Made by a program: the position numbers and the translations under genes | NCBI RefSeq assembly: GCF_003334815.1 | Contig: NZ_QOWO01000011.1 | Reading direction: 5' to 3' (one strand) | DNA length: 64,000 nucleotides | Source of the DNA: Escherichia coli | Lineage (GTDB): Bacteria; Pseudomonadota; Gammaproteobacteria; Enterobacterales; Enterobacteriaceae | The notes under the pieces: generated by a model | Databases searched by the model: none | Seen by the model: the letters and a program-made list of their open reading frames with translations, nothing else | Told to the model about the DNA's origin: nothing | Part shown: piece after piece, positions 30,211 through 30,332 of the stretch | Layout: every line of letters begins with the position of its first letter | Position numbering within the stretch: the stretch's first letter is position 1

Positions 30211-30270
30211 CCGTACTGAACGGTCCCCTCGCCCCTTTGGGGAGAGGGTTAGGGTGAGGGGAACGTACGG
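30211..30270. repeat. GC-rich imperfect palindromic intergenic repeat (ccgtac...gtacgg flanks)
   Basis: ccgtactgaacggtcccctcgcccctttggggagagggttagggtgaggggaacgtacgg read directly; lies between convergent yhfS and frlR. Confidence 0.6.
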
Positions 30271-30285
30271 GATGTAAAATTCAAC

Positions 30286-30332
30286 GCGCCAGCATCGCCG
30301 GATGCGATGCTGGCGCATCTTATCCGGCCTAC
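30286..30332. repeat. REP (palindromic unit) element
   Basis: gcgccagcatcgccggatgcgatgctggcgcatcttatccggcctac: typical REP stem with GCCGGATG / CTTATCCGGCCTAC ends. Confidence 0.8.

Follow-up and report, generated by a model that had tools for sequence, protein, structure and literature searches.

The convergent Escherichia coli genes yhfS and frlR are separated by a 151 bp spacer that runs from stop codon to stop codon, within the 64,000-nucleotide stretch of DNA analysed here (the window). The yhfS gene (+ strand) ends in TAA at 30181-30183 and frlR (- strand) in TAA at 30337-30335. A BLAST search of 5426 complete E. coli genomes places the counterpart in K-12 MG1655 at NC_000913.3 3504784-3504934, with the same length and the same neighbours (K-12 = 3535118 - window coordinate), and a 251-bp query matches several K-12 records at 100%. 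Across this spacer the RefSeq K-12 feature table annotates protein-coding genes only and no repeat, so the useful outcome of the work is the correct annotation of a spacer that is blank there. The original prediction described a composite repeat island in this convergent spacer, and this description stands: we are confident that two unrelated, catalogued E. coli intergenic repeats, a BoxC element and a REP, adjoin each other where two convergent transcription units have their 3′ ends. The identity of both elements is established below by direct comparison with known copies, and the functions discussed for these particular copies are predicted ones. The features are as follows:

30184-30334, not stranded: intergenic spacer yhfS/frlR, 151 bp
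30211-30271, + strand: whole BoxC element, 61 bp, comprising outer stem, inner flanks and triplex core
30226-30261, + strand: triplex-motif core, 36 nt, TMECO no. 15, type A mm (one mismatch)
30226-30235, + strand: pyrimidine block of the core
30236-30238, + strand: TTT loop
30239-30248, + strand: purine block
30249-30251, + strand: TTA loop
30252-30261, + strand: third-strand block
30286-30316, not stranded: alternative perfect hairpin, 13-bp arms at 30286-30298 and 30304-30316, loop CGGAT, 100% complementary
30297-30332, - strand: solitary z1-like REP, reading GCCGGATGCGATGCTGGCGCATCTTATCCGGCCTAC on the + strand, with its GTAG head at 30332-30329

The BoxC element is bounded by an outer stem (CCGTAC at 30211-30216 and GTACGG at 30266-30271), inside which lie inner flanks that are conserved in the family (left AACGGTC, right GAAC) and a core laid out as CCCTCGCCCC-TTT-GGGGAGAGGG-TTA-GGGTGAGGGG. 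Repeat finding recovers inverted arms of 26 nt that are 73% complementary, the 61-mer folds better than shuffled sequences (z of -2.5 on the + strand and -3.3 on the - strand), and the 22-nt G-rich core has 0.00 chance occurrences expected in the window, as estimated from 100 shuffles. BoxC is about 56 bp long as usually described. The name goes back to the 1990s (Bergler 1992; Bachellier et al.), and the element was found a second time as PIT (Hoyne, Maher et al. 2000/2002). Holder et al. 2015, whose Table 1 catalogues 23 copies in MG1655, gave it the further name TMECO (PMC4666352). Entry 15 of that table, CCCTCGCCCCTTTGGGGAGAGGGTTAGGGTGAGGGG, is an antisense copy of type A mm at 3,504,892-3,504,857 (PMC4666352). 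Window positions 30226-30261 are identical to it at 36 of 36 positions and map onto K-12 3504892-3504857 and, because sequence and mapped coordinates both agree, the window core is TMECO no. 15. The copy between yhfS and frlR was thus individually catalogued in 2015, and the element is a known one; since the REP is likewise of a catalogued type, the discovery value of the locus is small.

All 23 K-12 cores were found again, at 18 sites fetched by their published coordinates, in all gene orientations. All except one lie between annotated coding sequences (22 of 23); the xynR-argF copy (289,246-289,279) overlaps by 1-2 nt the annotated 3′ end of argF (289,301-290,305). Alignment of the 23 copies on their cores reveals type A flanks in common (left GYGCnCnGnaCGGTC, right GAAC(agg)ccnGCAC), and these shared flanks indicate that the family unit is an outer palindrome of about 60-66 bp around the triplex core. 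This agrees with the 60-bp GC-rich imperfect palindrome that had been predicted from the sequence. The proposal that the 60-mer belongs to a repeat family also holds, as a search for its uniqueness returned a multi-copy family: in addition to the 23 K-12 copies, a 73-mer query matches at a median of 17 places in each E. coli genome, with a maximum of 33 (5426 genomes). One copy lies within the 64-kb window. The window copy resembles other BoxC/PIT/TMECO elements in its core, its intergenic position and its conserved family flanks, and differs in its outer stem (CCGTAC/GTACGG, whereas most K-12 copies have GYGC.../...GCRC) and in a right flank that is a few bases shorter; neither difference is essential. 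An E-value scan of 29900-30700 against Rfam found no RNA family for BoxC, and the other matches were to miRNAs and snoRNAs and attributable to chance.

The three 10-nt blocks of the core stand in register for an antiparallel purine-motif triplex, with 9 of 10 Watson-Crick pairs and a single G.A mismatch (the ‘mm’ type), and with allowed reverse-Hoogsteen triplets (G.G, A.A or T.A) at all 10 third-strand positions. Oligonucleotides of this kind form very stable intrastrand triplexes in vitro, as judged by CD, NMR and melting, with type A mm oligonucleotides melting at about 74 C, and the non-folding control of Holder et al. is the same 36-mer with four G-to-C changes (PMC4666352). In vivo DMS probing of one site showed no protection (PMC4666352). 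Hoyne & Maher 2002, as recounted in PMC4666352, found that PIT elements block DNA polymerase in vitro with no detectable effect in vivo, that they have neither promoter nor terminator activity, and that RNA polymerase and conjugation are unaffected. These published tests argue against a transcriptional role for BoxC.

The G-rich strand of the window copy is the window + strand, which is the yhfS-sense strand. In 7 of 8 bins this strand has a positive GC skew, and the corresponding K-12 position, 3.50 Mb, lies in the left replichore; taken together these place the G-rich strand on the lagging-strand template, where it would be transiently single-stranded. By the orientations in Table 1, the lagging-strand template carries 13 of the 23 copies and the leading-strand template 10, which is no real bias and agrees with the earlier report (PMC4666352). 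At this locus BoxC is probably selfish or neutral DNA, structure-prone and non-coding. As DNA it could act as a triplex- or hairpin-prone obstacle on the lagging-strand template, with occasional replication or repair accidents, rather than gene regulation, as the main expected consequence; as RNA it would add one more hairpin to the yhfS 3′ UTR.

The second element was predicted to be a canonical REP, a class also called the palindromic unit and reportedly described by Stern 1984 and by Bachellier. It carries the REP tag (CTAC at 30329-30332 on the + strand, which is GTAG on the - strand) and an imperfect stem, GCCGGATGCGATGC / GCATCTTATCCGGC, with 14-nt arms that are 86% complementary. REPs are defined as extragenic imperfect palindromes of 30-40 nt that have a conserved GTAG foot and a mismatched stem (Ton-Hoang 2012, PMC3333891), and the element at 30297-30332 has every one of these attributes, being closest in class to z1. 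It matches the z1 REP of the fimH-gntP spacer at 27 of 32 positions, two of the five differences forming compensatory pairs, and its alignment to the y and z2 REPs elsewhere in the window is poorer. The identification as a REP is therefore secure. It is like a z1 palindromic unit in its GTAG foot, its imperfect palindrome of about 32 nt with an internal mismatch, its extragenic position and its 27 of 32 matching positions, but differs in being a single REP rather than a BIME pair and in carrying an added 13-nt inverted arm that creates a competing hairpin. It does not qualify as a BIME, since there is a single complete REP and the arm to its left is a 13-nt partial inverted copy. REP-type sequence and a hairpin are also features of naRNA4, the REP325-derived nucleoid-associated RNA (Rfam RF02564); membership of that family was rejected, with a score of 31.7 bits against a gathering score of 59.5.

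Other REPs are present in the window. Downstream of trpS, at 22468-22557 (and at 4505-4600 of locus L007), there is a BIME in which a 35-nt linker joins a y REP to an inverted z2 REP; a clear terminator, made up of a hairpin and a T-run, comes after it. Another REP pair lies at 9482-9590.

The description of the yhfS-frlR REP as canonical is accurate for the tag and the stem and has to be qualified for the extra arm. This arm (30286-30298, GCGCCAGCATCGC) repeats the top of the REP in inverted orientation, and the hairpin that it forms overlaps the REP stem; since it is perfectly complementary to 30304-30316, the two hairpins are mutually exclusive. The calculated fold energies are -20.6 to -22.2 kcal/mol for the canonical REP stem and -30.7 to -33.4 kcal/mol for the alternative perfect stem of 13-16 bp, making the alternative fold more stable by about 11 kcal/mol (-33.4 vs -22.2). 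The 49-nt stretch at 30284-30332 has fold z values of -5.2 and -4.4, and the alternative hairpin is its predicted fold. On the frlR-sense strand this hairpin is followed by GUUGAAUUUUAC. The arrangement has some likeness to an intrinsic terminator, in that a GC-rich hairpin of 13-16 bp precedes GUUGAAUUUUAC on the frlR strand, but the U-tract is short, interrupted and apart from the stem. A promoter and terminator scan gave one weak terminator-like site here against 0.8 expected from shuffles, which is the shuffled level.

FrlR, the repressor of the frl operon, is encoded by the gene whose stop codon is closest to the REP. On the - strand the REP begins 2 nt after that stop codon, and the foot of its palindrome is 6 nt from it. 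REP hairpins can serve as protective 3′ ends of transcripts (PMC6061677), and REPs lying less than 16 nt from a stop codon lower translation by ribosome stalling, according to Liang et al. 2015 as cited in PMC12306157. Judged by its position, the REP would supply the frlR mRNA with a stable 3′ hairpin that shields it from 3′ exonucleases and fixes where the transcript ends at steady state. Because its foot is 6 nt from the stop codon and thus within the range of less than 16 nt given in PMC12306157, the REP may hold down FrlR, with ribosome stalling as the candidate means of lowering its synthesis at a REP within 15 nt of the stop codon. The alternative hairpin and its weak U-rich tail may add some intrinsic termination for frlR. 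The predicted action of the island as a transcription barrier is accordingly divided between its two parts: for REPs it finds support in the literature on 3′-end protection and attenuation (PMC3333891, PMC6061677), and for BoxC/PIT the published lack of terminator activity and of any effect on RNA polymerase goes against it.

The intergenic region was compared across strains, as the original prediction had proposed, and four alleles cover 5404 of the 5426 complete E. coli genomes:

Intact allele, yhfS-BoxC-REP-frlR: 2865 genomes
Core-deleted allele, yhfS-frlR adjacency with 52 bp missing between ...ggtcccctc and aacgcgcc...: 91 genomes
O157:H7-type allele, trpS-BoxC-REP-frlR: 342 genomes
frl-less allele, yhfS-32 bp-yhfL: 2106 genomes

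The 52-bp deletion, found for example in strains 042 and MLI121, removes most of the triplex core and spares the left arm and the entire REP. Genomes of the O157:H7 type lack the complete yhfS-yhfZ cluster, and their homology to K-12 starts at window position 30220, inside the left outer arm of BoxC. The frl-less type has neither repeat; homology ends directly after the yhfS stop codon, and the spacer uses the hairpin that is found downstream of yhfL in K-12. BoxC and REP are therefore present in essentially all frl-positive genomes, whatever the other neighbour, and absent from frl-negative ones: they form part of the frl module, at its distal end, and move together with it. At full length, the REP plus extra arm occurs in 3336 genomes, which is close to the approximately 3298 frl-positive genomes, so that this combination is essentially specific to the frlR 3′ end. 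BoxC is kept beside the REP in 3207 of the approximately 3298 frl-positive genomes; this retention could mean that it has a selected function, which would weaken its reading as neutral or selfish DNA. What the census adds at the level of the locus, in 5426 genomes, is that the island moves with the frl operon and that the BoxC core is dispensable without loss of the REP.

Several smaller differences accompany the alleles. Several neighbouring positions in the left outer arm of BoxC vary from allele to allele, within an otherwise conserved spacer, with a K-12 version (ccgtactgaacggtc, 30211-30225), a 042 version (cagcgccggacggtc, locus L002 1775-1790) and an O157 version (cgctcggacggtc, locus L003 3990-4003); such differences could reflect gene conversion from other BoxC copies. 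In O157:H7 TX 376-2, where the yhfS-yhfZ cluster is also absent, frlD is annotated as a pseudogene with an internal stop (locus L003 4947-5732). Some frl-less genomes have a yhfS 3′ end that is 100% identical to the window and others one that is about 93% identical (locus L004 4001-4235 compared with 29950-30184), which indicates that frl presence and absence segregate among otherwise closely related backgrounds, and suggests that the polymorphism was spread by homologous recombination or repeated loss.

The neighbourhood of BoxC and REP is not a standing arrangement. A recurrent BoxC-REP unit was rejected, since a REP lies within 250 bp at only three of the 18 K-12 BoxC sites (pstB-pstA, fimH-gntP and yhfS-frlR), and the juxtaposition is on this evidence incidental. 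The alternative that the two repeats form a selected bidirectional 3′-end module, which terminates or stabilises both transcripts and insulates yhfS from frlR, is one that we regard as possible and rather doubtful. Both elements do fall between the two stop codons, the 146-nt region containing them folds strongly on both strands (z of -5.2 and -6.0), and a U-rich stretch follows the alternative hairpin on the frlR strand; the island is moreover kept with frlR even when the other neighbour is trpS, and the equivalent convergent spacer of frl-less genomes has a different hairpin in its place. Against such a module, BoxC occurs in K-12 in all gene orientations (as also reported in PMC4666352), 91 genomes keep the REP without the BoxC core, and PIT/BoxC elements are described in PMC4666352 as having no terminator or promoter activity and as leaving RNA polymerase unaffected. 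The consensus scan, with its one weak terminator-like site, likewise gives no more than shuffled sequence does.

The positions of the allele boundaries bear on a second alternative, in which BoxC is a recombination or rearrangement hot spot responsible for gain or loss of the frl and yhf modules, in keeping with the instability model of Holder et al. The boundary of the frl module directly follows the stop codon of yhfS and is 42 bp away from the core; the O157 boundary is inside the left outer arm, at 30219/30220; and the 52-bp deletion takes out the core itself. Variability has also been reported to be higher around TMECO sites than around control sites (PMC4666352). Against this, the 5426 genomes show no more than three events, all of them fixed in large lineages, with neither IS insertions nor sporadic rearrangements, and neither module has another BoxC at its opposite end – K-12 carries the y/z2 BIME and terminator downstream of trpS, and a plain hairpin beside yhfL – so that simple recombination between BoxC copies fails to explain the module differences. 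Repeats may simply build up at permissive module junctions. We therefore consider a causal role for BoxC in these exchanges unlikely, its link to local variability being correlative. The predicted recombination hot spot retains something, in that two operon-sized polymorphisms and one 52-bp deletion have end points inside the core or no more than about 45 bp from it, and is tempered by these events being few, old, lineage-wide and correlative. The companion claim of an insertion hot spot is not supported at this locus: no IS insertion alleles were found in the 5426 complete genomes, and the 2865 intact and 91 core-deleted alleles account fully for the 2954 genomes in which yhfS and frlR are still adjacent, leaving no IS insertions or sporadic rearrangements among them. 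With BoxC read instead as an incidental, structure-prone neighbour of the REP, its most plausible effect would be slippage or a repair-associated deletion now and then, of the kind seen in the 91-genome allele. The two operon-sized polymorphisms that end at or beside BoxC provide one more well-resolved case for asking whether triplex motifs cause variability or mark it.

A third account, which we think improbable, makes BoxC a miniature mobile element spread by some enzyme, with the yhfS-frlR copy as a fossil insertion. REP and BIME elements are themselves spread by RAYT transposases, and BoxC is similarly multi-copy and intergenic with conserved ends. Its type A and type B copies can also occur as inverted pairs, like BIMEs (PMC4666352), and the same tripartite motif recurs many times in very distant metagenome-assembled genomes (MAGs), sometimes within longer repeated units. 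The expected traces of insertion are missing: no target-site duplication is visible at the yhfS-frlR locus and no clean empty site was found at either the yhfS-frlR or the zntA-tusA BoxC locus, the latter retaining the element in 5097 of 5426 genomes, with no clean empty allele among the matches listed. Holder et al. likewise saw no link between the motif and mobile elements (PMC4666352). Nor is there a recurrent transposase-like ORF near the motif in 120 loci, as all-against-all blastp of 4537 ORFs from these motif-bearing loci recovered no recurrent enzyme gene. One ORF family at a seemingly fixed distance from the motif was set aside, as it looks, by our own reading of the sequence, like a set of Gfo/Idh/MocA-type oxidoreductase paralogues of about 26% identity with a Tat-like signal, not a transposase.

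The triplex motif had already been reported in more than 260 genomes (Holder et al., PMC4666352). Scanning species-representative genomes with the pattern GGGAGAGGGNNNGGGTGAGGG gave at least 141 matches in at least 120 stretches; among the matches listed, all are in MAGs, of alpha-, gamma- and deltaproteobacteria, one unclassified bacterium and one member of the Gracilibacteria. Almost all of the at least 141 matches also have, at hairpin distance, the left block CCCTC(T/G)CCC, which the pattern leaves unconstrained, and in some genomes the motif lies inside longer repeated units of at least 90 nt. The triad CCCTCnCCC / GGGAGAGGG / GGGTGAGGG thus recurs in many copies, with its A and T positions included, in E. 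coli, in alpha-, gamma- and deltaproteobacterial MAGs and in an AT-rich Gracilibacteria MAG. This recurrence across distant taxa, and the location of BoxC exactly at the seam of exchangeable operon-sized frl/yhf modules, would fit a reading of BoxC as a sequence-specific site for a conserved activity – a recombinase, a repair factor or a mobilising enzyme – and not just passive structure-prone DNA, a reading that we hold to be most improbable. The wide spread of the motif, and its role as cause or marker, are questions for the BoxC family and not for the yhfS-frlR locus.

Within these MAGs the motif takes differing forms. Candidatus Gracilibacteria MAG JALNXF01 (loci L084-L100), a candidate-phyla-radiation genome, has at least 17 GC-rich tripartite BoxC-like copies whose flanks are AT-rich and unconserved, and in one of its loci (L091) two third-strand units stand in tandem. 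In MAG JANYBJ01 (loci L010-L037) and Deltaproteobacteria MAG JAPLJC01 (loci L055-L066) the motif is the core of repeated units of at least 90 nt, which form two sub-families with conserved flanks (e.g. ...GTTGTTTGCACCCTCGCCCTCTGGGAGAGGGCCGGGGTGAGGGTTGTGGGCTTGCCCACATTGG) and are reminiscent of MITE-like elements.

The yhfS gene beside the island shows rearrangements of its own. The island had been placed about 770 bp from a duplication in yhfS, and the figure is right, as the duplication ends at 29438, 773 bp upstream of 30211. It is a perfect 50-bp tandem duplication at 29339-29438 (unit gcgcctgtttacccgacgacacgggttattattgagcagatggggctgac) that breaks the 361-aa gene of K-12 into ORFs of 129 aa and 251 aa, within a 7-kb region that is otherwise about 99.9% identical to K-12. 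Closer to the spacer, the 3′ end of yhfS contains a natural quasi-palindrome, GCGATTCG-CATTAACC-CGAATCGC, at approximately 30105-30132. In one genome, that of strain AST19 (locus L008 475-530), a 44-bp insertion makes the arms of this quasi-palindrome perfect over 28 bp and yhfS is annotated as frameshifted; the extension looks like either a template-switch mutation or an assembly artefact.
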